Shown: in pieces, positions 1,445 through 64,000 of the stretch | How the letters are laid out: every line of letters begins with the position of its first letter | How positions within the stretch are numbered: position 1 is the stretch's first letter | Source: Blasia pusilla | Taxonomy: Eukaryota | Direction: 5' to 3' | DNA: 64,000 nt | NCBI GenBank assembly: GCA_050084515.1 | Contig: CM114271.1 | Span: forward strand, 3,100,001 to 3,164,000 | Notes under the pieces: model-generated | The model's database searches: none | What the model was told of the DNA's origin: nothing | What the model saw: the letters and a program-made list of their open reading frames with translations, nothing else | Made by a program: the position numbers and the translations under genes

Positions 1445-4400
1445 TGTCACATGTGAGTAACCAGTAGACCAAGATCTATCGTGGATAGGACGTAGGAGCC
1501 AGCGGACTATCTGGAGTGTAACTTTGTCCCACGGTGTCGGATAAGGTTGAGGATAGGTCCATGGTGTCAGGAACGTCATTTCTGACAACTTTCACGTTGA
1601 GGACTTTCACAGCCGGATGACTTGTTGACCAGGTCACCCACCCTTGGTAACCTGTGCGCGCAAGTTACCAATGGGATGGCTATTTTTAGAGGAAGATCCT
1701 TTTGGCTCTTCCCAACCCTACATAAGAGAGGAAGATGGCTTTCCTAAGCCATCTTTCTCATGTTGGGCCGTTGGAGCACCTCTCTTGTATGTGTGTGAGA
1801 TAGGACTAGGGTGCTAGCGTCCGGATTCCTTGATAGCATAGGGTGGACTAGGCTCGATATGCCGATGTAGATTGAGGAGTGGACTTTTAGGCCGGGTGTG
1901 CCGTTTTTACTACTCTTTATTTTTATATGAGAGAGATGTTAGGGGGGCTGGTGGGAATTCATTGTTTGCAGGTAGGCAAGCGAGTTGCCTTGGTCAGGAG
2001 CCCCTGGAGTCGCGTGTGTTGCGGGTGTTGGTCATTTTTCTGTTCGGAAGGCCGTGGGCAGAAGCGTTGTCCGTTTTTCTCAGATTTTTGTTGGTGCGGA
2101 TAGACAAGGGACAACATCTGAGTGTTGCAGGAAGTGTGGCATTGGGTGTATGCGAGTGAGGGGTCGGGAAAGAACAGGAGGCGGCCGGGTCGCAGAGGCG
2201 GTTTAGGTCACAGAGGCGTCCGGAAATTAGGTCACGGACAGGCGAATGACGGGCCCCGACAGGCCTTCCCCCCCTCCCCTCCCTGCCCGAGGTGGGAGAC
2301 GCGCATCCCCCCCCATTTTAGGTAACGTGATAGCGGGTAGACTTCCGACAAGGTAAGCGACCTACATAGTTGGACAACCGATGTGGTTGATGTTGAACTA
2401 TGTGGTGAGACCCGACGCAGTTGGACGAGCGTGACAATTTGCGGGGGGAAATTGACAATGGAGCGTCAGTGCGCATGATGTCGACGGGTTGTCCGCATCT
2501 GTTGACGGGAGGATCGAGGTGTTGGTCGAGGAGAGTGTCGTGTTGCAGAGGTTGCCATGTCACATGGAGGAGTGCGTGTTGATGGTGCCTAGGTTGGAGG
2601 GCATGATCAGGTTACCCATTTGAGTCCCTTTTCCCGCACTTGTCGTGTGTGATTGAGAGTGCTGGGTATCGGGTAGTAGCTGGTGCTAGGTGGGTCCAGT
2701 GATGGTGACGAGTGTAGATTCTTTTCATGTGTAGCATGTTGGTGGATATACGGCGGTTTCTGAGTAGGGGTCGCGTGTATGACCCGAGAGAGTGTCGCTA
2801 GGTTAGGTGAGTCAATTGGGAGGCTCATGGTCAGCCTGAGTGTTGAGTGTGCGTGAGGCCGGGTATGTCATCACGGGATTGATGTTAGCATAGGTGAGCT
2901 AGTGAGGAGTGTGGGAGACTCTCGGTGAGTTTGAGTGCTTGAGCGGGTGAGATAGGGTTGTCATCACGGCGTTCTTCCAGGGTTCGGAAGAATGGGGTAG
3001 TGCGAGCAGTAGTAGTGGAGTGACACGGAGTGGAGTGAGATACCAAGGGGTTACGAGTGAGGAGCTACCTCGACATCCATCCGTGGCTAGATTGTCATCA
3101 ATTGACACTAAGTCTGGTGAGGAGATCGCAGACGGAGGCAGTATCACTGGGCAGGAGATGGACAACATGGACCATCGGGGCATGCGTCGTTTCTCGGGTG
3201 CAGTGGGCACCATTGACTTAGATGATTTTATCCAGGAGTTCGATACGTGGTGCAACTTCCAAGAGATACGGACCCCGACACGGTTCAACCCTTTTATGGC
3301 ATGGAAGGGGTTGTTCTAGCACTTGGAGGGTCCTCCGATGGATGATTACATGGAGTTTTGATCACTATATTCAATAGAGATCGATGCTTGGAGGATGTAT
3401 TGGGCTCCAGGGCATGTGTCCACTAGTGGTCGCGAGGCATCTGATGGGATTGTGAGAGGAGAGAGACCCACACCATCAACCCGGAGACTAGATGGAGAGG
3501 AGGGCAGTGAGACAGACGATGTGGCAGAGACCTCTGGTGGTAGAGGGCCACCTAGCTTCAACCCCACAGTGGAGTTCTTTCGACAGTTGGAGATGAGCTA
3601 CCACGACGTACGCACGGACAAGCTGAAGAGTCTCCAAGATTTTCAACAACGATCGGGTCAGAGTCTGAGAGAGGTATTCACACGCATGAGGAGGTTGATC
3701 ATTGCTACGTATGGAGTGACTGAGAAATAGTCAGTCTAGTATTGGTATGGGGTTCTGGATCGAGAACTACGGAGGAGAGTCGGAGATGCGATGCTGATTC
3801 ACACAGCGAAGCCCACATTGAAGGTGGTCTTTGAGTTGTCTGAGCGTATTGAGCTCAACATGAGTGAGGAGTAGGTAGTGACCACTGGATTTTCTCGAGA
3901 GTCAACGGGTCCATGAGCGACGGTGACCCCACAAGTGCCACAACGAGCACCAGTACCACGAGAGCAGGCCGGTATGCCCAGAGAGCAAGCCAGGTACCGT
4001 GAGCGTATGAGGCAACGACCCATACCTACATATGTTGCCCAACAGGCACTGATGTGGTCTTGTTGGGAATGTGGAGGGGCCCATAGGCAGAGAGACTGCC
4101 CACAGCATGGGAGAGGACCACGAGCGGCTCCAATTGCTCTGGAGCCACAGAGGATGGCCCCACCACAACACCAGTGTGACTATTGCCACAGATATGGTCA
4201 CACTAGGGATAGGTGTTTTGACCTTCGCCAAGAGGCACATCCAGAGGTAGGTCGAGGGCCTGGGGGCGGTCGTCCTAGAGGAGGTCGGGGAGTTCTTCTT
4301 GGACGTGGTGGTAGAGGACCACCACCAGCCAGAGGAGATGGAGCAGGAGCACCAAAGCCGACACTTCCCTCACGCATCAATCAGTTGGAGACGAGGATTA

Positions 4401-6494
4401 CTGCCATGACGATGATGTAACTCATGGAAGGCACGGAGCCGCGAGCAGCTAGTGTGGCTCCAACTTCTACCTCTTACCCTGACTCGGGTGAGGATCTCGC
4501 TAGTATGGGATTTATGTGTAGTGCAGCGGGGGCTGGTATTCTGGCAGGAGAGAGTAAGAGAGGAGAGGAAGAGAGGATGAGAGGAGAGTCTCTCTTAAAA
4601 AAAAAAGGGCCAAATCCGCCTCCTCTCTTCAAAACTTTTTGACATATTTGAATTTTTTTTTTGCTTTCAAATTCAAGAAATCTTTAGAAGAGAGTATTTA
4701 GTGGTCCACATTTGGCCCTAAAAAAACCTCCTCTTTCCTGGGGGCGAGAAAAAAGGAGACATCATAAGACCACCCTAAATATTTTTCCATCACTCTCCAT
4801 GTGAGCCTAAGTTTCTTAACATTCCTTGTCTCGGTCAACAAAAATCAGTGCCCTTGGTATTTTTGTTGGAGGACCACCCGGATGCCAACCTCTCTTTTTG
4901 CAGGGATTGTTGCCTGCATCATGGCCTCCCCTAAATTGCCCCATAACCAACTTTCTGTTGGTTATGAATGGTGTCTGCTCAAGACCAACTTTGTGAAATG
5001 TGAACACATCAGATCCTAAGGCTGAGAAACCGAGAAGCTGCACCCCTCCCAACCCGTAAGAAAGCTCACCATAAGAAAGGAAAGATTTTTAGAAGTGATT
5101 TTCTTCCACCCTGCACCCACGACGATCTAACAGGTTGGGAATCCGAAATGGCAATCCGACAAGTAGTAGGAATCCTGCACATCTTAGACAAGAAAAGAAG
5201 CCTACAACTGGTTTGACGAATATAGGGGAACGAGCCAAAAGTCAAGAAGCCCGCCACAATGTGTCAGAAGTTGGTCTCACCGGGATAGAGTCTGATCACT
5301 CAAGCAATCAACCTGTCGGAATCCGACAGGTTGATTGGAAATGGTAGAAAAGTTGCAGTGGGAAAAAGCAAAAAGTTGCAACCCGTCGGAATCATACGGG
5401 TTGCAGAATTGTAATTCTGAGTATCTAAAAGAACACAATCCACAAGTCCAAAAAAATATTCCATCAAACTTTTACAAACACCATTATGGGTTGAAAAAAT
5501 CTCGTCCTTTATTACCTCCGAAGGAACCTCGGAAATGTACATTTCACCTAGTCTATGATTTCTTCAGCCTCATCATCTAAAAATTTACTCCTAACTCTCC
5601 TTGGTGACAGTACCAAAGGAATGTCCTGGGATACAAGTGGCTCCTCTGGCCGATTGTAGACGGGGATCGAAAATGTTGGCGAATTCGAGAGCCTTGGCCC
5701 CCCCCTAGGTACACCATAACGGTCCCATATAACCTGTGTCGAGTCCCACCGCCTTCCTCGGCAGTATACCTTGTACGCTCTGCAATGTGACACCCATCCA
5801 GTATCAATAATTGCTCCGTCCCCGGTAATACCATTATGGCAATCGCACAGGTAGTAGGAATCCAACACGTCTGAGAGAAGAAAAGAAGCCTACGCTTTTT
5901 GCCTTTACGAGTTGAGGGAAGGTGCCAGGGAAGAATCCCGCCGGACTTCCTCTTAAGTTGGACCAACAGGAAAGAGTCAATCAGGCAACTGTCGGAATTA
6001 GACAGGTTGCCTGGAAGTGGTAAAAAGGGTGCAGTGGTCAAAAAGTGAAAAGATGCAAGCAAGAGAAATCCGACGGGTTGCAGTGGTCATAAAGTGAAAA
6101 GTTGCAAGCAGGAGAAATCCGACGGGTTGCAAAATAGAAGTCCATGAGTACATAGACGATCACATTGAAAAAGACAAAAATGTTCAAAGCAAACTTTTAC
6201 AAGCACCACCATCGTTGAAAAAATCTTCGCTTTATATCATCCGAAAAAAGCTCTGAATCAGTACATTTGATCTATTCTATGAAATTTTTGCCTCATCATC
6301 AAAAAACTCCCTACTCCAAACGCTGCAAATCAAGTGGGTCATTGAGTTCTTTGAACTCACTCGTCATCGTCGAGAGCTCTTGCAAAATTACTTTCGGCCT
6401 TGCCCTCCCGATTTTGGAATCGTTGGAAGTGACGATGGAGTCACTACCAAGGGTGGCTCTGGAACCGAGCTCTCGGCCGGTGGAGAGTTGTACG

Positions 6495-6755
6495 CTAACA
6501 ACGAGCCAGATTCGCCTTTGCCTCCTTGCAAAGGTCAAACAGTTCCTGCCTTCCCTCGAGGCAGAGAATGTTCCTGCCACTCTGCCAGGCGCCTTTGATA
6601 CTTGCCCCTGAAAGTCCCACTAAGTCGAACACCAAGTCACCCGGCCTTGAGCAGAGCTGGATGAGCATTTGCATCAAGGCTGGCGACTTTTCCCTTCCTC
6701 CCGAAGTCGGGTACTGTCTTGCATGTAAATTCCTGGGGGGAATTGTACAAACTAT
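6495..6755 (-). CDS. Beta-class N4/N6 DNA methyltransferase-like SAM-binding segment (motifs X-I-II, degenerate)
   Basis: Minus frame reads GREKSPALMQMLIQLCSRPGDLVFDLVGLSGASIKGAWQSGRNILCLE, cf. consensus KPxxLxxxLIxxxSxPGDxVLDPFxGSGTTxxAAxxxGRxxIGxE. No [DNS]PP[YF] catalytic motif found upstream. Confidence 0.6.
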   Translation of the reverse strand: MVCTIPPRNLHARQYPTSGGREKSPALMQMLIQLCSRPGDLVFDLVGLSGASIKGAWQSGRNILCLEGRQELFDLCKEAKANLARC

Positions 6756-6937
6756 CTAAGCTGTACCCATCTGAGCATGGATCCATAGGATCCTGGATCT
6801 TGAACACCAGGAAATTGTGCTCAGGCTGAACGAAGCAGTACATGTAGGAGTGGTCCATCTGTAAATCAACACGTTGGAAACAATGTCAGAAACTAAAGAA
6901 GTCGGCTTGACAACATTTTCAATAACTGACTTTGGAT

Positions 6938-7320
6938 CAACTTGTCGGAGTCCGATGGGTTGTTTTGTCCCGGACCAACCCGTCGCCTTCCGACGGGTTG
7001 GTCAGGGACTAGAAAAACCCGTCGGGCTCCGTTTTTTTTGTCCGTGAGCAACCCGTCGGAAGGCGATGGGTTGCTGGCCTAGAGCAGCCCATGCTCGCCT
7101 GAGAGCAACCCGTCGCTATCAGACGGGTTGAATCCGAAAACCAAAAGCAACTGTGAAAAACCAAAAGCAACTGCAACCCGTCGGGTTCTGACGGGTTGCA
7201 GGTACACCGCGGTTTTCCCTGTGTATCTGGGAAAGATGCAACCCGTCGAAAACCGACGGGTTGCTCTTAGCCGCATGGGCTGCTCTAAGCCAGCAACCCG
7301 TCGCCTTCCGACGGGTTGCT
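6938..7320. repeat. Cluster of GCAACCCGTCGG-N3-CCGACGGGTTGC palindromes in intron 6859-7435
   Basis: About 8 copies, at ~6938, 6976, 7016, 7048, 7105, 7174, 7238 and 7293. Confidence 0.9.
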
Positions 7321-9479
7321 CATGGAAAACAAAAACCCAGATTGACACTCATTATACTCACTCAACGGAGATGAACACTCATTATACACATCATTAAAAT
7401 ATAATTGAAATTATAGTACAGGAATTGAGCCTTACCCGAATCTGACTCGTCGCGGATCGGAGTGGGTACTCGTTTTTTATGATCCAAGATTGCGCCGTCC
7501 TCCACTTTAGCGACCTCTTGACGCACTGGAGGTTGAAGAGCTCGTCCTCGCTCCCTCCAGTCAACACCAAGAAGCAGCCCTGTCACTCGGATAGAGTCGC
7601 AAAGGAGAACAAAAGCGCACTGGTCATAAGAGAGCGGCACATTCCACTCGGTACCTCGTCCGACGGATTTCGCCCCAAAGTCGCAACCCCGAGGGCAGAT
7701 CGGCGATCAAGAGATCCACCGCAACCTCTTCGACCACTCCATTCACCGCCCAGGCAGCGTGCCCGCTTTCGTTGGAGCTTCCGCCCCAGCGTTGTCAATT
7801 TTTGATGGCTGGGTGTCGACGCTTGAGAATCGAAGCTCTTCACTCATCCAATAAAGGAGTGAATCAAGGAGGACGCTTGTCCGGTCGTTGTTTGTCTGTG
7901 TCTTCCCAAGGATGATGGATCAGTATTCTCCTTGGGACAACCCGGGCACCTCTCGCTTCCGCTTCTCCCTAGTCTGCGGACGGCTTGTCGGGTCTCTATG
8001 ACCTCGGACTGGTGGGGTTTTTTTCGCCGAGGACTGGTCCGACCCTCTCTCCCCCTTTCGTCCGAACGATTCCGCTGTGGCCTTGAATCTTCAGCCTCTC
8101 TTTGGGAAGACTCCGCCTCTGAATTTTTCCCTCCTGGCCTTGCCTTTGAGACCATTTGTGGATTTATCTTTGGTTGTGCGGACCTTGGAAGCCAACTCAC
8201 TGTGTCTCGTGGGCCTGCTCTTCTGCATCTCCTCGAAGAAGTCTTGATTTGGGCGAAATTGGGGTTGTCGACTTCACCTGAGGCCATTGCATCATGAAGC
8301 ACTCGTAAATCCTTATTGGTGATGTCTTCAGGGTCGTTGAAGTCGAGCCAAATGGGGCAATTCTCCACCTCCCAATCGGACATGTGCTGCCCCATCTCCA
8401 TGTCGCATACATGGAGAATGTCTCGCATCCGGCGAAGCCCACAATTTCAAGGCTACTGGTAATTTTCCCCACGTACCTGCATTCTTACATTGGACGAGGT
8501 ACTTGAAGACCATCCGTTGGGCAGCTTTTAGTCGAACAGAATCGGCCGTCTGCTCCTGTAGATCTCGCTTCTTCTTCGCTTGATCCCGTTTGTTCCCCTC
8601 TACTTCTTCGTCAAGCTCTGCCTGAGGGAGGACGCAAACCTTGAACATGGTCTTGAATCCTAGGTTTTTGGTTGGCTTGTCCCGGATGTCGTCGAGCCAA
8701 ACCTCGAAATCTCCAGAACTTTCAAGGTTTGCTTCATCCGGGATGGGCTCTAATCTTCTGAGCTCCGCTTGCAGACCGTCCAGCACGGACTTCCCGATAA
8801 CCCCGCAGCGGCCCCAGTAACGACCATTCGCCAGGTGCAAGATCATGGATCGGACACACCCGGAGGATGGTGTGCCGCCCTCTTCTGGGCCTCTGAGCCC
8901 TCGAGACTGATTTTCATCAGTCGGATCCTCCTAAACTCGCTTATGCCGGACAACGCAAACCGATGCACGCGATCCAGGGACACTTTCTCCCCAATCTGAC
9001 CATGCGGATCTTCATCCCTTTTCCGCCGGCGCTTGATAATCGCCTTCAGCTCCTTGTAGAACTCCGGACCAAGTTCGGGGTTGAGAATGCTGATGTATCG
9101 CTGCATCTTGCTCGCCGTGTATTTCGTTCTGCAGATCTGCAGCTTGATGAATTTCGCGCTCAGACGCAGATACCTTCTCCCTCCGCTCGGCTCGGTCGGC
9201 GCTTTTCTTGCGGCTTTGTATCTTCGACCAGCAAAGGATGGTTACGGCTGCATCTTGGGAAATAAACTTATTTGCCTAAGTTTTCTTTTTAATCTGAGCA
9301 CCCTCTGCAAGCATCTGATTGACAAGGGGATCGCCCAAGAACCCCCTGTACTCTCCCGGGTGTGTCGTAAGCACCTTCCTCACCCGATCATAGTCCTGGA
9401 TCCAGTGGTGGGTGACATTCCCCTCCGATACAATCTTGCACATCCAAACCCAACCCGTCAGGAAATTACATGGGTTCTT

Positions 9480-10020
9480 GCAACCCGTCGGACTCCGACG
9501 GGTCGTCACAGCTCAAGGTTGGATTCTAGCAACGAGCTAAATGATGCAACCCGTCGGAGTCCGACGGATTGCATTCAGATTTGCTAATGCCTGGTAAGCA
9601 AACCGTTGGAGTCCGACGGGTTGCTCGACTCGCCGCCTTATCAGGATGTTTTTTGAAGAATGCAACTCGTCGGAGTCCGACGAGTTGTTCGACTGACTGC
9701 AAGTTTAGAAGGTTTTTTCCCCAAAGCAACCCGTCAGACTCCGACGGGTTGATTTCGGCCAAAAATAGTTTCGAGGCAAGCAACTCGTCGGAGTCCGACA
9801 AGTTGCATTCTTCAAAAAACATCTTGACAAGGCGGCGAGTCGAACAACCCGTCGGACTCCGACGGTTTGCTTTGGGCCAAAAACTAATTAAATCCGTGGT
9901 CAATCAAACAACTCCAATCTGAAGTCGAGCAACCCGTCGGAGTCCGATGAGTTGCTTTCGGCAAAAACAAACCTAAACCATTCATCAATCAAGCACCTCG
10001 TCGGAGTCCGACGAGTTGCG
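9480..10020. repeat. Palindrome cluster, ~50-85 bp spacing, intronic
   Basis: Copies at ~9480, 9546, 9598, 9662, 9726, 9780, 9845, 9929 and 9993. Confidence 0.9.
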
Positions 10021-10040
10021 TAAGTGTTAAAGATACTCAC

Positions 10041-10495
10041 GTGCTCATGGCATGCATTGCCATCTCCACCGTCGCCATGTGATGAGGGAATGGGTGAAGG
10101 ACCACTGCCTCCAATGAGTTGGGCCGCTCCTCCGCAAACTTGGTCCACGCCATGAACCTATGATTTCCATCCCAGATGAAGAAATGCAGATTCCTCATCC
10201 AGCTGAATTCCGTGCCCTCAACTTGCCTTCTGAAATCCTGGTCTCGCATCCTCCAGAATGTGTCGAGCTTTTCCAAGTCCTCCTCCGTAACCAGAGCTTG
10301 GGTTCCATGCTCGTCGTAAGGCTGAACATAGAAGGGAGGAAAGTTGTCGACGTAGGATGCTGTCGCCGCCGATTGTTTAAGCTTCGCGATGTCCTCGTCG
10401 GACTGAATTTCGCGGATGTATTCCATTGTCCGCAATCGGCAGAGTGGAATCCTCGGGGCGTTGTGGCCCTCCATGAGTGCCATCTGCTTTACCAC
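10041..10495 (-). CDS. ParB/sulfiredoxin-like domain exon
   Basis: RIPLCRLR...IREIQSDEDIAKLKQS...FPPFYV...FFIWDGNHRFMAW follows the ParB-N/Srx pattern ending in hhhDGxHRhxA (~10145-10185). Confidence 0.65.
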
Positions 10496-11589
10496 CTGTA
10501 AGAACCGGGACAAGATGAATAAGCTACACTGAATTCCCAATGAATTGCAATTCACTGATCCTCTCTTACTCGCTCGAAAATGGGGTCGGTTTCTTGACCA
10601 ACTAACTTGTCTGAGATAGAAGCTGGAAAATCGACTGGGAACTCGTCGATCCGATAAAGGTTGATGTCCTCCGCCGGGCTTGGAGTCGAGAATGACCGCT
10701 CTCCGGCTTCTTCGGCCATGTCCACCATCTCCACGCTGGCGGTCCTCATGACCTCGTCGTCATCGATTTCAACTTCTGGCGTTTCCACTATGTTGATTGT
10801 GTCCCCGGACTTTGTGGGGGACATTTCCCGCATCTCAACACTTGCGGCTGGACGGGCTGGGCTATCGTCAATGGCTATCGCTTTTTCCCTCCTCGCTTTA
10901 GCCAATTCTGCCCTCCTCACCGACGCGTCCAGACGCTTCTTTTCTCTCTTTTCGTCGGCGATCCTTTTCTTCAAGGCCTGCGACGTCTCAGCCTCTGACG
11001 TTCTATTTATCTAGCGCCTCTTGAACACGTCTCACAAGAAGCACTTGGTTGTGCATCTCCGCTTCCCTTTCCCGCTCCTCGATTTCCTGCTGCCTAATTT
11101 CATTCGCCGAACAAGGCCCAGGAGAAGCTGACGCAGGAGTCCTAATGGACTTCGGAGTGAAGCTCCAAGACTTGTTGGCTTGTGATTTTTTCCTCGTCAT
11201 TTTTTCCGGAAATGCCTCCACCTATGTCCACGACGAATCCCTTGATCAGTCGCCTTGCTGATGTCGAGATGGGGAGCTCGAATCGCCTTGATGGGTAGCT
11301 CGAATCGTCCCGTGATCGCTCTGTCGAACCGTCTCGCTATCGTTCGGTCGAACCATCTCGCTCTCGTTCCCTCCTATCGACTCGGGATGTGTCGCCGTGT
11401 GAAATGCCCCTTCATATCTGATCAGCTGTTGCGCGGGAGTGTGAGGAATGAAGATCGCGAAATGAGAAACCGGAAATGAGCGATTTCTGCCCTATTTATA
11501 CTTTTCTAGCCGTTGGGCTGACCGTTGGGTCCCATCGTCCTTTCGACGGCGACGTGCCGGATGTTACGGAAGTCCGGACGTGAAAAATG

Positions 11590-12172
11590 GCAACCCGTCG
11601 GAGTACAACAGGTTGCGCGGCTACGCCATCCTGGGTACGTCGCCACATGCGCGAGCAACCCGTCGAAGACCGACGCGTTGAGCGCCTCCGTTGTCTTCGG
11701 AAAAGAACGCGAGGTACCCCCGCAACCCGTCGGAGACCGACATGTTGCGCGCCTCCGCCGTGTTTGGGACGGGAACGGGACGTATCTTGGGCAATCCGTC
11801 GGAGACCGTTGGGTTGCACGCTTCCCTCATCAAGGGTTAAGAACGAGGGCTTCCCGTGCAAGTCGTCGGAGTCCGGCTGGCTGCACCATAAGGCGAGGCC
11901 CTTGCGCAACCCGTTGGAGGGCGACGGGTTGCACGCCTCGCCGTCTTTGGGCAAAAAGGTGAGGCACCCGTGGAACTCGTCGGGAACAGACGGTTTGCAC
12001 GCCTCCGGCATCTTCGGGCAAGAAGGAGGGGTATCCGAGCAACTCGTCGGAGAGCGACGGGTTGCTCGCTTCAAAAATGTTTAGCAGAAGCGTGCAACCC
12101 GTCCGATGCCGACGGGTTGCAGGCTTCGGTTAGCTTCGGGTAATTTTTCAGTTAACAGGACTCCGACGGGTT
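11590..12172. repeat. Palindrome cluster, ~65 bp period, in the region between the divergent accessory and transposase genes
   Basis: Copies at ~11590, 11655, 11722, 11791, 11857, 11906, 11973, 12039 and 12094, plus a half site at ~12160. Confidence 0.9.
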
Positions 12173-12912
12173 CCAAGTGCGATGCGCAACCCTCTGCTTC
12201 CCAAATCCGGTAACATATTGCAACTGAATTGAATGTGTCCGCAGGTGGATCCATTGTGTCAGACAATGTCACCCACCGAATTCATCTTGTCAGTAAAAAT
12301 CTGTCAGGAGTATCTGTTTCCTATTCACTATAAATTAAAAATTCTCATTCTCAGTCTCCTTACGTTGGAATCTTCTTGGAATGGATAATTATGTTAAGCT
12401 CACTTGTGGCAGTCATCTGGCGGCCCTTTCTCAATCAGAAATCATTCGACCCCAAGCTCGTGAGTCTTTCATAGCAGTGGATGAAAATTTTTTCTGCATT
12501 CGATTTCTTCTCCAATTGGAACCATCTTTGTATCCAAAGATGTTAGGGTGGACAGTTTGGAAGACATAATAGGTGAGACAGTCCAGCCGGTGACCTCGAC
12601 TGACCGTAAAGTATGGAATCTCCTACCTCTAGCAAATGGTCAATATAGAGTTTACGGCCGCCCCGATCGTCTGTTTCCCAAGTAGACGGTCTAGAATTTC
12701 CTAGTGCTCCGAGCTCCACGTTTGCAACTCCAAGCTCTGCAGATCCGGCCGACCAACCATGACGCTCGAACAATGTTGTTCTTCTTGAAGAGATTCCGGA
12801 TGTTATCAACCTCGGCTGGATCCGCTTCGGACACCAATCGGGCCCTCTGTCCGCCTACTCGTTCCTCTTGCAAGTATCAGGCAATAGTTTGCTTTCGTCT
12901 CTGGCCTTGAAA

Positions 12913-15900
12913 ATGTTCAAGCACATTCTTGTCGACGAGCTGACGCCCATGTACGATGGTAATTGTATTTTTGAGTTGCCTCCACTTGCAGCTCCTGCTC
13001 AAAAGAAGGATGGAGGATGCCTGAAGGGTATGGACAGAAAGTTTGATTGTCATCGATGGTGCAGGCTTCAACGGACCAGTGCTTCAATTCCACATGGTCC
13101 TTGGATTGTCTCCCGCCACCAGTGCGTGGGAGCCTTGGAGTGTAGAAGTCCAGCATACCCGTATCTAGAGCACAACGGGCGAGTCAATACGTCGCAAAGC
13201 CCGGAGTGATCAAGCTTACAACGGCATCACAAATTTGTGAACAATTGCTTGGAATCCCTGGACAGGGCGAGATCACGGCGGTTGAGGAGAAACAACTCTG
13301 GGAGAATCTCTCATTTCTCGCTGATCCTGAATGCTTCCGGAATTTGCTGCGTCAAATACGAGTTCTGGATGGAAAGACGGCCGAAATGGATGCCATCGCC
13401 AGAATCAAGGCCAACTCCAGATTTCCATTCATTCAGAGATGGCAGTTCATGGGCCAAGGAGGCGAGGGATCCAGGGCCTATGTCTTCAAAATGTCAACCA
13501 CAGGTCCGTCGAGTGGCCTCGATCTTATAGATCGAATGAGGGAAGGGGAAGATCTTTACGGGAGTTGGGTAAGCTTTGATATTTGCAACAGAGTGTTGAA
13601 CGGATGGTTGACGATGGGTGCTCACGTTTATGACCATGTGGAGAAGGGACTCAAAACTATATTTGTCTGTGAAGTAAAGGCAGAAGACGTTGGCAATTTG
13701 AAGATGTGTTGGTTTCTCTTATTGGAGGTGGTGAAGGAAAACAAAAGGCCACCTCTGGAAATTTATGGGTTCATGGCGCACAATGCACAACCTGGGTGGA
13801 TTGCTATCCGGGAAGTGTTCTAGGGTGGAGAGGTTCAACCGGAGAGGGAAAGGTCGGATGCTTTCCATTGGCAACAGTCTGTGACCCGGTACACCAAATC
13901 TTGCATCAAGGAGAATAAGAGTACAGAGCATGTGACTCTACTCCAACGCTGCAAGGATAGCAAAACCTTGAAGCAGGCCATGGAATGCCAGGAATAACTT
14001 CATGGGTGGTGGAGGAAGCATGCGATTGAGGGGAAGTACAAAGAGTTGTGCTCTTGGTTGAGTTGGTGGACTGTACGTGTGAGACAATGTGGAAACTTCA
14101 TGCGGCAGGTGAGTTCACTATTTTGTCTTGTCAAGCTCACGCTGAGAATTGTTTGTAAAGTTGAAGCTCAGGGTGAGAAGCGTGGGAATTATATGGATTT
14201 CAAACCCAAGAAACCAAGCAAGCTGTCGGATGCAACGGGTTGCCCGAGTGTGCAACCCGACGGAAACCGACGGGTTGCCCGAGGGTGCAACCCGACAGAA
14301 ACCGACGGGTTGCCCGAGGATGCAACCCGACAGAAACTGACGGATTGCATCGAGATTTTTGGTGCAACCCAAGTGTGCAACCCGAGTGTGCAACCCATCG
14401 GGACCCGACGGGTCACAGAGTCGTTCATGGGATGCCTCGGCCTTGCAACCCGTCTGGTTCCGACGGGTTGCAGTAGGTGGGTTTAAGGTTACAACACGAC
14501 GGAAACCGACGGGTTGCATCCAGATTTTTGGTGCAACCCGAGTGTGCAACCCGAGTGTGCAACCCGTCGAGACCCGACGGGTCACAGAGTCGTTCATGGG
14601 ATGCCTCGGCCTTGCAACCCGTCCGGTTCCGACGGGTTGCAGTAGGTGGGTTTAAGGTTACAACACGTCGGGACCCGACGGGTCGCAGAGTCGTTCATGG
14701 GATATCTCGGCCTACAACCCATCCTGGTTCCGACAGTCGCTTATTTCTTTGACTCTGAGTTATTTTCGTTCCCTTCTAACATTGCCGTCATTGCAGGGAT
14801 TGAACGTTTATGAAAATGCCCTCTGCCCCAACACAAGTGGAGCAGAAAGTGTTCATTCCTCTTGGAGGTTGTCACAAGCATGCCAACGAATTTCACTTGT
14901 GGAGGCATGCCAACAAGACCAGACAAGAGCAATGCTACTGATCTGCAAACATCCCATATCTTCCTCACAAAAGGCATAACAAAAGGAAAGGGGCCGTCGA
15001 TCACGAGCTCTATGTCGTATGGTGTGAGATCCGGGTGATGAAAAATTGTATGTGGAAGCCTTCAACCGGTGCGTAGCTGGAACTCCACTCGAGCAAGACG
15101 TACACATTGGTGGGGATATTCGTGGGCGGGTTTCAAGACGTCTCATACAGATGGTGGTAGAGCAGTCTGAGCGAGACTCGTGGAGACCATATAAGTATCT
15201 TGACTTCAGGCAGGTGAAGAGGCAGCATTGAGGAACGAATCCGGTGATTGATTTGGATGAGGAAATTACGCTGCCCAGGTATTTGGGGACCCCGGACCCG
15301 TCCCAAATCCGTGATGGAGTTACTTCTCCAAAATCAGTGAATGTTTTATTTCAAAAGCCCTCCGTTGTTGGAAGTTCGCAACATCCTGTCATTGGGGTGG
15401 TTCAACAATATGGGATTCCGGTAATGGAGGTGGATTGCAACCTAAAACGGTGGCATATATCTCGGAGCAACCCAAGACGTGGACCCACCTGCAGGGCAGC
15501 ATCTGATGGCATTAGAAGAGCATGCGGCACTTTCCTAAATAAGAAGTGTACAAGGATTGGACGACCACTGCCTGGGTTTTGGGGACTCAAAACCTTTGAT
15601 CGTTTCACGAGGACCGGGGATCAATTGAAGTACTTCTTCTGCCCAAATGAATCTTGCGCTTTCCGGAACTCTTATCCGGCTGCCATTGGAGCTCAGGAAT
15701 ACCCCACGATTTGGCCCATCGCCGGTAGGAAGCGCACTCAAGACAAGTGGACAATCTTACAAGTGCGATTTCAAACTCGTAGAGATGGGGAAGTTCGGAG
15801 CATGTTTGCATTACAGAGACCCTCGCATTTCGTATTCATCCCAAGATTGATGTCAACATGTACCCGGAGAAGGTGGATGATCTCAATCCATTATTTCTGT

Positions 15901-16292
15901 TTGAGTCTAGAAATGGGGTGAAGAGAAACAGAATGTGCAAAGCCAACGGTGGAGAGCAAAGCGAATTGCGTGCGGCTCGGGAGGCAAAAATGGAGATCAT
16001 CGCCACGAAAGATGTCTTGAGTGGCAATGGAATAGGAAGGATGTATTGGGTCAGGAACAACACTGTAAATTCAAGTGTCACAGGGGTGTATGTGGTGCAC
16101 ATCTGTTGCTTTCCCACATGTTCATATGATGACTTTGTCCAAAGAGAGACAAGTGGCAAAAGGTATTTCCCTTGTAAGCACATGTACTATGTGTTGCAGG
16201 TAGTTTTAAGAGAGTCGGAGGTAGGAGTAGGAATCCACCAACCAATTCTGTCCCTCAAAGAAGTTCGAAGTATTTTAAACAAACCACTTTGA
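12913..16292 (+). pseudogene. MULE-type DDE transposase with N-terminal Cys-rich (GCM-like) region and C-terminal SWIM finger, spliced
   Basis: WVSFDICNRV (D1); GFMAHNAQPGWIAIREVF (D2 position reads H); DAFHWQQS (CxxH-equivalent); NTSGAESVHSSW (E) after an in-frame GT-AG intron 14109-14796 with CTAAC branch site; PTCSY...FPCKHMYYVL (SWIM) ~16115-16195. Contains stops and frameshifts. Confidence 0.8.
14230..14740. repeat. Palindrome/half-site cluster with a ~179-bp tandem duplication inside the transposase intron
   Basis: GCAACCCGACGGAAACCGACGGGTTGC variants; 14345-14520 is repeated at 14520-14700. Confidence 0.85.
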
Positions 16293-17699
16293 GGATGCAA
16301 AATGAGGTTTTAGATTGTACTTTTATTTTTTTCTCAACCTTCACTTTGAGCTTGAACTCTATTCAGCCCTGGGCAAATGATAGATTTTTCCCAGACCTTG
16401 GATGGAAAAAGTGATTGGTTCCACACTTATTATTCCACTGATTTTTCAATTTTCTAAATTTTGAGCAATTTGCAACTCGTCGGACTCAGAGGGGTTGCCA
16501 AAATGTGGAAGAGGAAAAAAAAACTGTGGGACTGCTTCATATATGAACAAAAAAGTGCAAAAAATTTCGAACAAAAATTTTCCTCTCTTCAACCTGACGG
16601 AAACTCTCTTCAAAAAAAAGTATTTATTTCGGTTGAAGGTAGTTTCCTCTCTCCTCTCTCCTCTCTTCCTCTCCTCTTACCGCACCTCTAGTGCAGCCCA
16701 GGTTGAGGTTGCTGCAGTGGCGACCCGGTGTGCTGCAAGAGGCACCAAGCCATTGAGAGGTGGAGTTGAGATTGACCCACCAAAGGGGACCGATGGGCGG
16801 CAGGCCAGGGTTCCACAGTCATTCACATTTTCGGAGGCACTACACACACCATCAATGGTGCCTCGACGACCAGCGGTGCCTATAGCTCAGGCAGGTACGT
16901 CAACGTCACAAGGAGTTGGAGTGACAACTCCTATGCGAGATCAAGTGGAGTCAGTGTTGGAGGTAGCCGCTAGAGTGAGTTGGCATCCGCTATTTTTCGC
17001 CATAGAGTTGGCAACATTGGGAGTTGGACAGCTGAGGTGTTCCGGCTGGCCGCCACGTTGTGTGAGAGTGGAGTGATGACTGCTTCTTGTTCAAAGGTAG
17101 TTGAGGAGGTGGTGGACTTGCCCTCAGAGCCCGTGCTCGGGACGTTCCCCACAGAGTCATGGCACGCGGCGGCGGCGGCAAAGTTGGTAGACATGCGAGC
17201 TCGACTGGCCATAGAGCGAGTAGTGGTGACACTTGGAGTAGTATTACTGGATAACCGAGCTGGAGTATTTCGCTTGGTTAGTCTCACGGGGACAGTATAC
17301 CACCCAAAGCGCGTCCTACTTGATTCGGGAGCGCAGCCCTTGATGTTAGGGAAGGTGCCGTGTTTAGCATTGGGGTTACAGAAGGCCGACATTGAGCCTT
17401 GTCCCTTCTAGATACATACCTCGATTGGGGGCATGTCACCCACGTAGTATATGACTTGACAGGAGATAATTGTCAGAGTCCAGCGAGAGCATGCGACGGA
17501 TAGTGCTATGATACGCACACGTGCGATTACGACACCAGTTGAGTCGTACGATGTGTTGGTGGGGAATGACGCGAGAGCTATAGAGGAGTGTGGACGACCT
17601 CGTGAGGCAAGCATGGAGTCATGCCTTTATCCCGGAGTAGTGAGAGTCTGGTGGCAATCGGGTCGTGGAGTGGAGACGTTGACCCCACTGGATACCACA

Positions 17700-18680
17700 C
17701 CCGTTGTGTGGCAGTGTCTAGAGGAGGGTGTTAAGATGTTACATCTCTTCGGAGGGATTAGCAGTGGATTGGCCGCAGTATTGCAAGCGGGCATACGAGT
17801 GCATCAGTACCTTTATGTGGAGAGAGATGAGATTGTGCGACAAGTATCACTATGTCACGTAGCGAGATTGGTCCAAAGGTATCCTGAATTGTTGTTGGTA
17901 TCTGCAGTACGGGGATATCAGCATACACTACCGCCGACATCTCTTTGGTGGGGGCGCAGGATCTGGATAGAGTTGGCACCATTCATTTGGTGATTGCTGG
18001 ATGGCCAGGTCAGGGTCATTCATCAGCTGGCTGAGGATTTGGATTGCAGGATCCGAGGTCAGGGATGTTTGGGAGATGCTAGGAGTAGTACGACACTTCC
18101 ACGAGAGTCAGACATGTTCTCAAGCGTACATTTTGGAGAACATGCCGTTGTTGGGAGACACTCGTGCACGTGTGATGACGAGGGTGCATCTGGTGAGGTC
18201 CTGGTTGGGACCTGCTGTGTTGCTAGATGCAGCGAGAGTTGGGTCACGTGCCCATCGTCCACGACTATGGTGGACGAACCTGATACCATCAGAGGTACTG
18301 AGTCGAGCATATGATGGAGTCCAGAGAGCACCACATCTCACAGTGGATGCTATTTTGGGGTCAGGGCGTCGATCTCAGGTGGTCACGCGGGATGATGGAC
18401 CACCGTTGGCGATGGCCAAAAGGGTGGGGGAGTTGAGGGCAACCTTATCTACGTTGGTGAGCTTCCCAACATCCCATGCCTTTCGTCAGGGAGGGCCATG
18501 CATGATTTGGGATGAGGTGACCAGACCATTGGAGGAGCCTATAGCAGATGAGCGCAAGTGCGCCATGGGGTTTGCTACCGTACTACGGCGGTGGCAGGGA
18601 TGACTGAGGCATCCCAAGACACGTGTTGGGGGAGGCAATGGACCTCAACTGTCTCACATGGATAGTCAGCCTAGGTATGG
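17700..18680 (+). pseudogene. DNMT3-like C5 DNA methyltransferase domain of G1 (frameshifted; catalytic PC reads PG)
   Basis: Motifs MLHLFGGISSGL (I), GWPGQG (IV, ~18000-18016), YILENMP (VI), SRAHRPRLWWTN (VIII), LGEAMDL (X). Confidence 0.85.
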
Positions 18681-19461
18681 CTGAGCAGAGATGGATGCGA
18701 GTATCATCCATGCCGTCACGTCCACAAGTTGGACCATTGCCTACAAGGTCTGTACAGGCATTGGCTAGGGGCGAGACAAGGAGAGATAGGCACCCATGGA
18801 TTTCTTGGGACGTCATTCGACTAGAGAGTGTGAAGGCAGCCAGAGTAGCACATGTTCATTTTTTGGATGTGGAGCATGGTGTAGGAGGTCAGGGTGGAGT
18901 GGCTGTTGCGTAGGTGGCTAAGGTTGCTACATAGCAACCAAAGCCGGAGGTTGCGCCCTCTCCAAGTGAGGTCACGATGGAGACTTGGGAGCGTGTGATA
19001 GGTCTCAAGTTGATAGGAGGAGAGCAACAGCAAATTCATAGTTTTTTTAGAGGGCATGTTACTTGTTTTGCCTTCATTATGAGAGACTTGGGTAGGCTGA
19101 AGGGTCCCGAGATACGGATTGAGTTGGCTAGTGATACGCCGATCTTTCGTCGACCCTACAGGTATTCCGATATGGAGCGAGCCTTGCTTCAGAGCAGGAG
19201 TCATGATTTGTTGGAGGGAGGACTTGTGGAGTTTCACATGGGGAGTATGCATCTGCCACAGTCATGCCGGAGAAGAAGGATATGTATGGCAATTGGACGG
19301 ATAGGCCGATGTGTGGAGATTACCATCCTATCAACCGACAGACGTGGTACGCCATGCCTACTCTTGAGGAGATCTTTGATGCGGTAGGGCATGCAAAGAT
19401 CTTTAGTACGTTAGATCTCCATGCTGGCTATCATTGGAGGACAGGGAGAAGACATCATTCT

Positions 19462-19710
19462 GGTTCTTGAACCGACCAGAAAGTTTGTCCCAAGTCTTTC
19501 GAGACTTGCCCGTATTGTAAACCGCGAAACTAGGAAGGGTGAGCTTGATGAGAGTCCGAGACGAGAACTCGGAAATTTAGCCTGCTAATTGATCCAAGAC
19601 CCGACTAACCAGAGTGCGTGTTTGGATGCAGATCAGCGATGAGAGCGTGATCTACTGAATGCATGCTTCCGCAACAACAAGATTAACGCAAGGAGAGTAG
19701 GCGCACAACA
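19462..19710 (+). repeat. Inverted fragment of the chromovirus 3' LTR
   Basis: Reverse complement of 37198-37448; ends ...GCGCACAACA next to the Copia integrase. Confidence 0.85.
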
Positions 19711-27212: not shown

Positions 27213-30200
27213 TTGGTCATCACAGAGCTGTCTGGTGGTCTGGTTGGAGACCGTGGTGTGGACAGTGGTGGTTTCACACGGAATGGATTGAGGTATCGGC
27301 TACCTTTTCCACTTCCGACGGTTGATGAAGAGGAGGACGAGGGTGTTCCAAACACCGAGTCTTCCACGTTGTTATCAAGTGTTGCAACTCCATTGATTTG
27401 GGACATGGACGGGATATATGGGGCCATGAAGGTCCCACGATAATACTCGGGTGCATTGGGCACCATTGAGTTGGAGGACTTCATGCAGGAGTTTGATACG
27501 TGATGTGATATGCAGATGTTGTGGAACGCCACGTTGTTTACACCCTTCTTGGCTTGGAAGGGGTTGTTTCAGCATTTGGAGGGACCACCCATGGATGATT
27601 ACCATGAGTTTAGGAAGGACCATGTTGCTGAGATTGAGGCGTGGAGACAATATTGGTGTCCAGGCTATGTGTCTATCACCCATGGTGGTATTGGTAGTAG
27701 TGCTCCTACTATGCCAGCCAGCCCGACGTTGAGTGGTACGAGTACGAGCCGGAGTGGGGGTACCAGTGGAGGTACTCATGGAGGTACCAGTGGGGGTACT
27801 AGTGCCCCACCATCATTCACCCCGGTTGTAGAGTTCTTCAAGAGGTTGAAAAAGAACTATCAGGGAGTGAAGACAAAGAAGTTGACGAGTCTTCAGAAAT
27901 TTGAGCAAAAGACTGGTGAGAGTCTTCGTAAGGCATACACTCGTATGCGACGCTTGATTTCAGTTACCCATGGTGTGACTGAGGCTCAGGAAATCCAGTT
28001 TTGGTATGGGATCTTGGATAGAGAGTTGCCCCGCACGGTACGTGATGCTACTCTTATGAGTGATGATTCACCCACATTGACCCATGTGTTTGCTCTATCT
28101 GAGAAGATTGAGCTTAACATGGTGAAGGAGAGAGTGGTGACATCCACATTCAGTTGGGATATAACGACTACTTCTCGTGTTCAGCAGCCCACCTCACAGT
28201 CTTGTAGTAGTGGTGGTGGTAGTAGTAGTGGGAGTCGTGGGGGGTACACACGACCTCAGTCAGGTCCTAGAGGGACACTTGCGTAGAGACCATTGCCTTC
28301 ATTTGCTGCCCCGCAGCAAGGACAGTCATGTTGGAGATGTGGAGGTGATCATGTTAGGAGGTTTTGTCCCCAAGAGGATGGGAGACGGACTTTGGAGGAT
28401 GGGCCTCAGTCAGCCCCAACTCAATGTGATCATTGCGGGAGACCAGGTCATCCTCGAGAGCGTTGCTTTGATCTTCATCCAGAGTTGAGATCATGCCGCG
28501 GCCGTGGTGGAGTAGCTTCGAGAGGCCGAGGTGGTAGGGGTGGTAGAGGTGGATCTGTGGTTGGAGAGCCTACGGTGGCTACCCCTACCACTTCGACAGA
28601 GTCAGCTATGGCTGCCATGATTGAGCAGTTGGAGTAGAAGTTGGCTACTATGGCTGGTATCCAGCATAGATCAGGTTTGGGAGTAGGGGCTTCCACCTCT
28701 TATGGAGGGGATGATCTCTCTTATATGGCGAGTGCAGTACAGGTTGAGGCATCAGTTGGAGTTACGAGAGGAGTCACTCGAGCGTCAGAGCCACGTGGTG
28801 CTACTGTGGAGTTGGACCCACAGAGGAATGAGGTTGGGAGGCAAGCTAGGCTTCCCCAGTCATTCTTGTTGTCTGAGGTGCTTAGGACTCCATCCATGGT
28901 TCCTACACAGCCTATTGAGCCGACAGTGGGGAATGAGGCATCTACATCGCGTGTAGTAGACACGGATGCAGCATCCAGTGTAGTATTGCGGATGGCAACT
29001 TCAATGTTGGGATCCCCATTTTTTTCGGCCACGGAGCTGATGGCTTTAGGAGTTGACTTAGCTCCCGTATTTCAGCTAGCAGCCACGTTGTGTGAACGTG
29101 GGGATGTTACTGCTACACGTGATGAGGTGGATAAGGGTATTGCGGTGGAGCGACCCTCTATGTCAGGAGTAGCATGGAGTACCAGTGCTACTTGGCAGGA
29201 AGCAGCGGCGAAGATGGATGCATTACCAGCCCGGCCTACCATTGATCGTGAGAGGCTTACACCTGGTGTATGTATGTTGGACAACCGGAGTGGGATATTC
29301 TGATTGGTGAGTCCTACAGGACATGTGTATAGACCAGATAGAGTCTTGTTAGACTCTGGTGCCCAACCTTTGATGTTGGGAAAGGCGGCATGTATTGGTT
29401 TGGGTATTCGGAGGTTAGAGCTTGAGCCTTGCCCATTCCAAATTCAAACATCACTTGGAGGAGCCAATGATAGGTCTCAATTCATGACACCGGAGAAGTT
29501 TTCTGTGCCGTTAAGACTAGATCATGTGGCTGATAGCTCCCGGTTGGGAGTACCTGCAATGGTCACATCAGCCGAGTCGTATGATGTAGTAGTTGGAGGA
29601 GCAGTATTGTATCCAATGGGTTTTCAGATGGATTATTGGACTAAGATAGCGTCTTATAGACCTGGTTGGCAGTCCGGGGATGGACGTATGAGCCAAGTTC
29701 TTGTGAGATTTATTTATGGGGCTCGACCAGGAGGGTCTTCCCCAACGGTGTTAGCATCTGTGGCTGGTTTTAGTAGAGAAGTCACTTGGCCATGAGACTT
29801 TTTGGAGGGTATTGTTTCTACTATGGATTCTCCTATGCATGAGGAGGTAGAGGAGGTCCCTAGTTTTGCAGCAGTGGCATCCTCATTGTTTGATGTGCCA
29901 CTTGGGAGTTCAGGCGGTGCACTACGGCAGGAGGCTGATCGCCTAGTGCAGGAGGCTTGGTGTGAGGTTGTTATACCTCACGAGGAAGAGGACGCCCCAC
30001 ATCGGACTCCTACTTCTAATCCATTTGGGTTATCCCCTTTGGATACTACACCCATTGTATGGCAGTATTTGCCGGAGGGCATTTGTGTGTTAGATCTCTT
30101 TTGTGGGATTAGCACTGGTTTGGCTGCATTGTTGCAAACCGGTATTCGTGTGCGGAGATACGTGTATGTGGAGCAAGATGAGATGGCCCATAGAGTCTCA

Positions 30201-63779: not shown

Positions 63780-64000
63780 GTATAGCTATTAGATGTTACT
63801 CTATCATTTTGGGGTATAGTTCATGGGTGTACTAGAGGAAAGAATAAATCCTTAACATCGATAAAGATGGATACAAGGAAAGACTTCTGGAAAAGGCATA
63901 TGTTGAAAGGGAAGGCATTCACTTCGAGGATATTTTCTCACTAGTGATAGAGATTACATCCATTTTCATATTTCTAGGCACAATAGCTCTCTATGACCCA
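63780..64000 (+). mobile_element. Eroded Copia RT N-terminal fragment
   Basis: Translates GYKERLLEKAYVEREGIHFEDIFSLVIEITSI, cf. Copia RYKARLVAKGYxQxEGIDFxEIFSPV. Confidence 0.6.

Follow-up and report, generated by a model that had tools for sequence, protein, structure and literature searches.

A 64,000-nucleotide stretch of the genome of Blasia pusilla (assembly GCA_050084515.1, contig CM114271.1, positions 3,100,001 to 3,164,000; hereafter the window, within which all positions are counted) contains a decayed DNA transposon of 12,161 bp. The element carries a transposase gene and, divergent to it on the other strand, an accessory gene whose predicted product joins a probably ParB/Srx-like N-terminal region to a methyltransferase-like C-terminal domain, and its non-coding parts hold arrays of one palindrome. 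From the sequence comparisons described below, we infer that a protein binds this palindrome, and we give about an even chance to the interpretation that the palindromes are cognate sites for a dimeric DNA-binding protein encoded by the element, most probably the accessory protein. The accessory protein would load at the palindromes of its own element, between the promoters and in the introns of both genes, and, once loaded, would regulate the element or mark it epigenetically, for self-marking or for protection from silencing. The conservation of the gene family, the constraint on the palindrome and the differing palindromes of relatives fit such a module of protein plus operator.

The palindromes are specific to the element. 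An earlier note on this DNA, made from its letters alone, had counted roughly 40 copies or half-copies in the non-coding parts of the element, a description that our searches bear out. Across the whole 64-kb window, the half-site AACCCGTCGG with at most one mismatch is found 64 times, against 2.1 ± 1.5 expected from 100 shuffles (shuffle maximum 6), and 63 of the 64 matches lie in the element, between 5310 and 16483. Full palindromes, defined as 11-nt arms around a 3-nt spacer with at most two arm mismatches, number 29, every one of them inside the element; with six degenerate copies added from the half-site search, 35 palindromes could be aligned, giving the consensus nGCAACCCGTCGGAnTCCGACGGGTTGCn. 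They are 25–29 bp long (consensus GCAACCCGTCGG-AnT-CCGACGGGTTGC), with GC-rich stems of 11–13 bp, and occur as five arrays and one lone copy, with a spacing within arrays of about 35–85 bp:

Positions 5309–5403, no strand: palindrome array 1, two copies, downstream of the accessory gene, with further half-sites at 6070–6128.
Positions 6952–7318, no strand: palindrome array 2, six full copies and half-sites, between the motif IV and motif I exons of the accessory gene.
Positions 9452–10018, no strand: palindrome array 3, nine copies at a spacing of ~64 bp, in the predicted intron after the DGNHR exon of the accessory gene.
Positions 11590–12172, no strand: palindrome array 4, eight aligned copies and half-sites at a spacing of ~66 bp, between the 5' ends of both genes.
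Positions 14235–14685, no strand: palindrome array 5, nine copies, in the RNA-supported intron of the transposase gene.
Positions 16474–16498, no strand: lone degenerate palindrome, ~190 bp from the right end of the element.

An idea that the palindrome centre is a GANTC site, the target of the methyltransferase CcrM, was dropped as a general feature, since only 12 of the 35 copies (in arrays 1 and 3 and the lone copy) have this centre and the other arrays have other spacers.

Palindrome and surroundings have fared differently. Identity of the palindrome 25-mer is 0.83 within arrays and 0.80 between them; for the linkers the values are 0.50 and 0.43, and shuffled linkers also give 0.43. The palindrome has therefore been kept, or re-seeded, amid unrelated surroundings. 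Its arms are symmetrical (85.5% paired, compared with 21–40% when the partner is slid), and paired changes on both arms occur in 17 cells, compared with 7.8 ± 2.2 in shuffles (0 of 500), an excess that can mean selection on symmetry or, equally, duplication of units that had already changed. RNA reads also connect different arrays across opposite strands, or run backwards inside one array (6781/9807, 9725/14320, 9583→9481), reflecting either rearrangement of other copies at palindromes or template switching at hairpins during library preparation.

Such joints between arrays, the paired changes above shuffle level, the tandem organisation in larger units (one of 169 bp, repeated 2.2 times, and one of 85 bp) and the non-palindromic tandem arrays found in many relatives would all suit another origin, in which the arrays are selfish or neutral hairpin-prone minisatellites that spread by slippage or template switching in non-coding DNA and have no protein partner. 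We consider this distinctly unlikely: the near-equal identity of the 25-mer across five arrays, set against linkers at 0.43, calls for constraint or repeated seeding, and relatives have other palindromes at the same position relative to the same gene. The arrays might instead act as RNA, as intronic or untranslated hairpins serving splicing, stability or a small-RNA decoy or trigger. Three arrays are intronic, one of them proven by RNA, the stems are GC-rich, and the paired changes fit selection on pairing; array 4, however, is intergenic, lying between the gene starts, and stems of 11–13 bp are short for Dicer-type processing, so that we regard a role at the RNA level as very improbable.

The protein partner that we propose for the palindromes is encoded on the minus strand, as follows:

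Positions 6311–11200, minus strand: accessory gene (putatively ParB/Srx-like N-terminus, helical middle, methyltransferase-like C-terminus), spliced and broken, with its ATG at 11200 and its stop at 6311 placed by eye.
Positions 10043–10495, minus strand: exon with the DGNHR domain, ParB/Srx-like by motif order, with phmmer relatives and a sub-threshold match to DUF1015 (E 0.0097).
Positions 7666–7746, minus strand: exon with motif IV, A-D-L-P-S-G, found by tblastn with residues 931–960 of the protein P0013 (E 0.042).
Positions 6498–6755, minus strand: exon with motif I (S-adenosylmethionine (SAM)-binding, DLVGLSGAS), with a match to PF01555 and to a hidden Markov model (HMM) of the Riccia domains (E 3.7e-4).

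The 1,207-aa Riccia protein P0126, and also P0013, is colinear in tblastn with minus-strand pieces of the window at 10504–10043 (DGNHR domain), 9434–9183, 9139–8864, 8383–8333, 7746–7666 (motif IV, VAVDLLIADLPSG) and 6701–6510 (motif I). By eye, a 74-nt GT..AG intron (10569–10496) links an acidic upstream exon to the DGNHR exon, and a GTGAGT donor at 10040 starts the long predicted intron containing array 3. Three lesions break the gene in this copy: its frame is interrupted near 11010, a TAG stands in frame at 9276–9278, where the sequence is conserved, and the frame shifts near 9175. Its start is divergent to the transposase gene, and read strandedness, at low depth, fits divergent transcription of both strands: first mates lie mostly on the plus strand over 5572–11500, as fits RNA from the minus strand, and mostly on the minus strand over 12356–16600. 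The arrangement proposed in the earlier note, with a transposase on the plus strand and a divergent spliced gene on the minus strand, is upheld by this strandedness, by the tblastn colinearity and by the RNA-supported transposase intron.

An exhaustive phmmer search with the open reading frame (ORF) of the DGNHR domain, P0001 (10040–10498, minus strand), returned 122 proteins at E ≤ 1e-3 and 32 at E ≤ 1e-10, the best with E 1e-21 and 36% identity; a word-based homologue search with the same ORF came back empty. The 20 of these 122 relatives that were looked up comprise 13 hypothetical proteins of Riccia sorocarpa, three proteins of Adiantum nelumboides, two from JGI metagenomes and two from Logan assemblies. 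These sequence relationships show the accessory gene to belong to a conserved family with products of roughly 1,200 aa, present in a liverwort, a fern and moss-like metagenome contigs, and not to be a stray capture.

RNA reads (9–23 per run and place) match only two short conserved cores of the C-terminal part, 6348–6415 and 6526–6640, and on either side of these they follow a different, consistent sequence; the organism therefore has a diverged paralogue of this part that is expressed. Downstream of the accessory gene, a diverged direct duplication of about 450–490 bp (5148–5598 and 5836–6324, 66% identical) has palindromes or half-sites at the end of each copy.

Relatives of the accessory gene allow gene and repeats to be compared across lineages. 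Scanned for the motifs of a six-protein alignment, metagenome contigs of JGI gave 166 relatives, of which 80 loci were kept; an earlier metagenome scan with a single protein had found no relative. The 80 loci are AT-rich (29–38% GC; 44% in locus L010), consist of plant-like DNA with Copia reverse transcriptase and SURNod19, and are mostly decayed, 17 of them giving a unique stop-free domain match of at least 90 aa (duplicates were dropped too). The 34 loci of at least 5 kb fall into 19 sequence groups, to which we applied a strict array test asking for the same 7-mer and its reverse complement within 12 bp, at least four times. As a control, one of five window chunks outside the element reached this number, through an unrelated 553-bp satellite.

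Palindrome arrays lie beside the DGNHR gene in three of the 19 groups, each of them clear, with motifs that differ from that of the window. L010 has 15 paired palindromes, TGAGGTGCC-N6-GGCACCTCA, at a spacing of ~138 bp, 13 of them upstream and two downstream of the gene. In the group of L023, L024, L026 and L027, the palindrome is TTCAACTTTC-N4-6-GAAAGTTGAA, with four copies upstream (~130-bp spacing) and six downstream (51 bp), and L064 and L065 have the motif of the L023 group, at 51 bp. The palindromes are lineage-specific: L023 and L065, 73% identical in the DGNHR domain, have theirs in common, and palindromes differ between L010 and L023 (41%) and between the window and the others (26–30%). 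Other kinds of repeat are found as well. L043 and L044 have a 25-bp direct tandem repeat of ~35 units, not palindromic, ~2 kb downstream of the DGNHR gene (L043:5206–6197; L044:4513–5479), so that the family may use other kinds of repeat array too; L045 and L046 have a 106-bp array, and in L035 a 51-bp array of seven units lies between both genes. Pieces of the transposase are found upstream of the DGNHR gene and on the opposite strand in six of the 19 groups (L031, L035, L054, L058, L060 and L067/68); in L065 such a piece lies downstream, convergent and 8 kb away.

This recurrent linkage bears on a different reading. It would be the transposase or a host factor that binds the palindromes or uses them for regulation, as a bidirectional promoter or enhancer or for internal loading of the transposase, and the accessory protein would act at another place or have another substrate. 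In favour of this, the starts of the divergent genes lie exactly to either side of array 4, some relatives have the transposase together with tandem arrays (the 51-bp array of L035, for example), the relatives that have palindromes gave no methyltransferase domain, and subterminal repeated motifs bound by the transposase are known for Ac and En/Spm. Yet the dense arrays lie at least 0.8 kb from the ends, with one degenerate copy alone within 200 bp, which does not fit a terminal role. In L010, in the L023 group and in L064/65, moreover, it is the ParB-like gene that stands beside the arrays, with no transposase piece in L010 or the L023 group and only the distant convergent one in L065, in contigs that are short or decayed. 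On balance, we judge sites for a transposase or host factor to be unlikely. A role of the palindromes in end synapsis, entertained in the earlier note, is likewise unlikely, because the arrays are internal.

The same pairing speaks to whether the minus-strand gene could be a captured host gene, in the manner of a Pack-MULE, that does nothing for the element. Plant Mutator-like elements commonly capture genes, according to the consulted part of PMC6431247, and the expressed, diverged paralogue of the C-terminal part, whose reads share 6348–6415 only and diverge on both sides, would suit such an origin. Against capture, the gene is whole, has its own introns and is paired divergently with the transposase; this pairing recurs in relatives just 26–30% identical in the domain; and the gene forms a multi-copy family in Riccia, with metagenome copies mostly decayed, as transposon copies are (17 of 80 unique and stop-free). 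We therefore hold capture to be highly improbable, more so than any of the alternatives above.

The N-terminal domain of the accessory protein contains the motif DGNHR. The family consensus, P.IPLCRL..VR...L..F..GY...F.VS...(insertion)...F.VWDGNHRL.AW, follows the ParB/Srx motif order (strand, conserved arginine, helix, strand, and a strand with DGxHR followed by a helix), with an insertion of ~45 residues. The canonical CTP (cytidine triphosphate)-binding box of ParB is GERRxRA; it is not present in the window or the family consensus, which have DGNHR(L/F)xAW instead. All weak matches of the DGNHR domain point to the ParB/Srx superfamily and none is significant, so that its ParB/Srx-like nature is likely but unproven.

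The C-terminal domain is, by its sequence, beta-class N4/N6 methyltransferase-like, with support for motif I. In this METHYLTRANSFERASE-like domain, the window exon at 6495–6755 matches PF01555 with E 2.3e-5 and 24.9 bits (cut-off 26.7) over profile positions 165–220 of 221; its Riccia homologues match with E 9e-6 to 5e-5, and a search with P0127 gave 26 Riccia paralogues carrying the methyltransferase domain, four of them with a precomputed PF01555 match. When 13 Riccia domains were made into a profile, hhalign aligned it to a Streptococcus phage adenine methyltransferase with 92% probability (E 5e-7), a match confined to 54 columns around motif I. PHROG 3008, annotated as 'DNA methyltransferase', is matched by P0130 (E 4e-9), the sole matches in a PDB profile search were DpnA (E 1.2) and CcrM (E 1.8), and tblastn of P0126 against phages gave just 15 weak matches (E 0.03–1), all at motif I. 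The permuted beta-class order is present, with the motif IV exon upstream of the motif I exon, and the same order is seen in the Riccia alignment (A2). Phage and plasmid beta-class methyltransferases (PF01555; CcrM, DpnA) resemble the domain in having motif IV before motif I, and phage enzymes match its motif I region. They differ in their motif IV, (D/N/S)PP(Y/F/W) there and D-L-P-S/T-G here, and in that the matches cover the motif I region only. Most of the 13 rows of the Riccia alignment read LDLP[ST]G or LDMP[ST]G at motif IV, to which ADLPSG of the window is equivalent, and the Adiantum protein P0071 reads DVPFG. SAM binding by the domain is plausible from these motifs, and classical amino-methyl transfer is doubtful. 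From the ParB plus methyltransferase gene of the earlier note, SAM motif I thus stands (PF01555), motif IV turns out to be non-canonical, and the ParB fold is not established by its sub-threshold matches.

A number of results weigh against the palindromes being cognate sites for the accessory protein. Clear palindromes are found in only three of the 19 groups, the others having direct or unclear tandem arrays, so the co-occurrence of gene and palindrome, which had been suggested as a check on the idea, is clearly seen in three groups, with palindromes of their own beside the gene. Protein and palindrome diverge together, as co-evolution would allow but as common descent alone would also lead one to expect, and the paired arm changes also fit a hairpin-driven origin. 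With the HMM of the Riccia methyltransferase domain, the exon of the window was the sole match (E 3.7e-4), and the 80 metagenome loci gave none; the palindromes there therefore go with the DGNHR gene and not with a detectable methyltransferase domain. The catalytic (D/N/S)PP(Y/F/W) was not found at motif IV in the window, in Riccia or in the one Adiantum protein; D-L-P-S/T-G lacks both the second proline and the aromatic residue, which makes methyl transfer to a base doubtful.

The ParB fold, too, is unproven. DUF1015 and DndB, which we take to be members of the ParB clan, are matched below threshold by two of 60 family members (E 0.0097 for the window, 0.0056 for P0003) and by one of 60, respectively. 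The profile phrog_1033, 'ParB-like partition protein', is matched by one of 15 members (E 0.044). Aligned by hhalign to 73 YbdM-type ParB-like proteins, the family pairs its DGNHR with DGFHR, over 17 columns only (P 0.056), and comparisons with P1 ParB (probability 0.03%) and with the single sequence of Escherichia coli YbdM (0.25%) are not significant. None of the 17 stop-free metagenome members matches a ParB-clan family, and PDB sequence and profile searches with the DGNHR domain and the full-length alignment returned no ParB.

Our searches gave no direct support for a prokaryotic origin, raised as a possibility in the earlier note: no relative turned up in motif scans that covered 185,579 prokaryote species by one genome each and the viral contigs of IMG/VR, and tblastn of the DGNHR domain against phages gave one chance match (E 4). 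The phage and plasmid methyltransferases used as references are stand-alone proteins of about 230–250 aa, not ParB fusions. Judged by its class, the methyltransferase domain could plausibly go back to a distant phage or bacterial ancestor; there is no support for a recent transfer.

The window is eukaryotic DNA with many retroelements, and the element is inserted in a retrotransposon reading frame. Its boundaries are as follows:

Positions 4519–4527, no strand: left target-site duplication TAGTGCAGC, identical to 16689–16697 and part of the host retroelement frame.
Positions 4528–16688, no strand: DNA transposon copy, 12,161 bp, decayed, delimited by flank colinearity and by divergence of RNA reads at 4528, and high-copy in DNA run X1.
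Positions 4528–4588, plus strand: left terminal inverted repeat, weak and GA-rich, in which 4559–4588 matches the right end at 29 of 30 positions.
Positions 16649–16688, minus strand: right terminal inverted repeat, weak and GA-rich, matching the left end.
Positions 16689–16697, no strand: right target-site duplication TAGTGCAGC, a 9/9 match to the left copy.

Removal of the insert and one duplicate restores the host frame (...MGFMCSA|AQVEVAAV...), which an uninterrupted retroelement paralogue at 28731 reads as SAVQVEAS. The flanks are colinear with a third retroelement copy, with a gap of 1,112 bp there and of 1,098 bp in the present copy if the insert is taken out, and RNA reads of other copies depart from the window sequence exactly at 4528 (X19, n = 7; X21, n = 10). 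The inverted GA-rich end match, 29 of 30 with the ends offset by 20 bp, scores 53, compared with 16.2 ± 2.4 in 300 shuffles (maximum 27), and seven of the terminal-most 11 bases of both ends agree. DNA run X1 has 139,986 contig pieces that match the element at an identity of at least 90%, which makes the family high-copy; it is also transcribed. This copy itself is broken by in-frame stops and a frameshift; the element is a decayed member of a high-copy family of cut-and-paste DNA transposons.

Target-site duplications of Mutator-like elements (MULEs) measure about 9 bp (8–11), in line with the perfect 9-bp TAGTGCAGC, and we label the element Mutator-like by that criterion only. Searches for the MULE domain (PF10551) and the SWIM finger (PF04434) gave no Pfam match of any kind at E ≤ 0.1 in seven plus-strand ORFs of the element or at E ≤ 0.01 in 31 ORFs of related loci. 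The 12.2-kb MULE of the earlier note accordingly stands as an element with a perfect duplication and weak ends, its class assigned by the length of that duplication.

The transposase gene lies on the plus strand:

Positions 12383–16292, plus strand: transposase gene, DDE-type by layout, with related pieces in eight loci and its ATG at 12383 placed by eye.
Positions 14109–14796, plus strand: GT..AG intron with palindrome array 5, supported by an RNA joint 14104→14793 (cut +4; X21, n = 6, and X19, n = 1 reads).

RNA reads are for the most part 90–95% alike to the window and therefore stem from other copies. The central frame (13146–14108) is a single one with two in-frame stops, at 13821 and 13995; position 13995 is T here and G in nearly all other copies and all listed RNA reads, so that the stop at 13995 is private to this copy. 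A word-based homologue search with the transposase ORF was empty. In related loci, tblastn found transposase pieces at E ≤ 1e-3 in six of the 34 loci of at least 5 kb, with L058 and L060 added at E ≤ 0.05. Conserved blocks read YxFKMST.G, W..FD, HVYD, FMADxAQ, C/DxFHW.QS and a C-terminal ...PCKH..., and by eye these follow the order D...D...C/DxxH...AES with a C-terminal Cx3C...CxH finger; in this by-eye reading, the order of blocks seems to resemble MULE or hAT-type DDE enzymes.

Elsewhere in the window, three diverged copies of one retroelement family, 65–75% identical, occupy 3193–4527 with 16698–19710 (the host of the insert), 27446–31800 and 44574–48900, and carry a gag-like CCHC part. 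Pfam gave no family for the retroelement ORFs beyond the insertion site (16974–19384), and a lookalike of cytosine methyltransferase motif I at ~17700, in the host retroelement ORF at 17460–17990, was dropped, as Pfam gives no match. The tandem satellite at 52581–56432 (also 42918–43475) has a unit of ~553 bp, with ~7 units 88–94% alike, each having an inverted pair of plant-telomere-like motifs (TTTAGGGTT...AACCCTAAA), and it adjoins 1.4-kb repeats at 42053–43475 and 51725–53156. GC content falls sharply to 25–35% over 58000–64000, compared with ~50% in the repeat-rich part.

Several known systems resemble the one proposed here. In the VANDAL MULEs of Arabidopsis, the anti-silencing product VANC reportedly recognises short lineage-specific motifs in the non-coding parts of its element. 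The likeness lies in a Mutator-like element with an extra gene and with motifs repeated in its own non-coding DNA; VANC, by contrast, belongs to an unrelated family, its motifs are short and are not long palindromes, and loss of methylation has been experimentally shown there. Bacterial ParB–parS and KorB–operator systems are comparable in that a protein of the ParB family has palindromic sites on the replicon encoding it, some of which lie at promoters. They differ from the present element, which has DGNHR and not GERRxRA, no significant match to P1 ParB or YbdM, no detected helix-turn-helix, and another number and spacing of sites. Apart from VANDAL/VANC, transposons with sequence-specific self-recognition are, to our knowledge, essentially known only as a proposal made for algae.

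That proposal concerns two kinds of element. The 21.5-kb Sola1-1_Ec32 of Ectocarpus, as described in the consulted part of PMC12477816, is a large DNA transposon with an accessory gene opposite to the transposase strand, encoding a protein of ~1,100 aa with ParB-like and N4/N6 DNA methyltransferase domains, and its authors propose that the accessory protein binds and modifies its own transposon. It belongs to the Sola1 superfamily and to a brown alga, in contrast to a Mutator-like element by its 9-bp duplication in the green plant lineage; we liken the two by description only, and in that description palindrome arrays, present here, are not mentioned. The giant Plavaka (EnSpm) elements of Bostrychia and other red algae encode, in the consulted part of bioRxiv 10.1101/2025.02.11.637652, PAG2, a PF01555 methylase with SET, and PAG3, a ParB-like N-terminus with a 2-oxoglutarate (2OG) oxygenase. 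They share with our element ParB-like and PF01555 accessory genes, and their inverted-repeat tandem arrays adjoin the ParB-like gene; the suggestion made there is one of self-binding and self-modification, for which VANDAL is named as the sole known parallel, and their ParB assignment of PAG3 is likewise weak (HHpred E 0.29). Differences lie in the superfamily and duplication length, in the two domains being in two proteins with SET and 2OG oxygenase there and fused in one protein here, and in the arrays, which here also occupy introns and the space between genes.

Literature searches found no paper combining ParB-like, transposon, methyltransferase and bryophyte; for ParB, Mutator-like and methyltransferase, they found the Bostrychia preprint alone. 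The Marchantia N4-cytosine methyltransferases, which in the consulted text are host genes with the canonical motif TSPPY, are a different matter. The self-recognition idea, put forward in the earlier note, is in print already for brown and red algal transposons (2025; PMC12477816 and bioRxiv 10.1101/2025.02.11.637652, as far as these texts were consulted). Novel in the present element are its host lineage, a single protein that combines the two domains and has a remodelled motif IV, the intronic and inter-promoter position of the arrays and, at the level of sequence, the evidence for constraint on the palindrome and the lineage-specific palindromes of relatives.

The locus thus extends the algal type of architecture to the green plant lineage and has relatives in a liverwort, a fern and moss-like contigs: a large DNA transposon, a gene opposite to the transposase, and ParB-like and PF01555-type domains, matched here at the strengths given for each domain. 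It adds evidence absent from the consulted parts of the printed algal descriptions, namely a palindrome constrained amid drift and other palindromes in the same place in relatives. With its non-canonical motif IV, the methyltransferase-like domain may still methylate DNA or may have turned into a binding module, and the Riccia full-length proteins offer a concrete testable pair, the N-terminal and middle part of the protein with the 27-bp palindrome. By analogy, we regard as possible, though on the doubtful side, a eukaryotic transposon-borne counterpart of ParB–parS active in the plant lineage, from streptophytes to ferns, in which a fusion of a ParB/Srx-like domain with a remodelled methyltransferase would load on lineage-specific palindromic operators within its own element, marking or shielding that element epigenetically. 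If true, each transposon lineage would recognise only itself, with operator and protein co-evolving.

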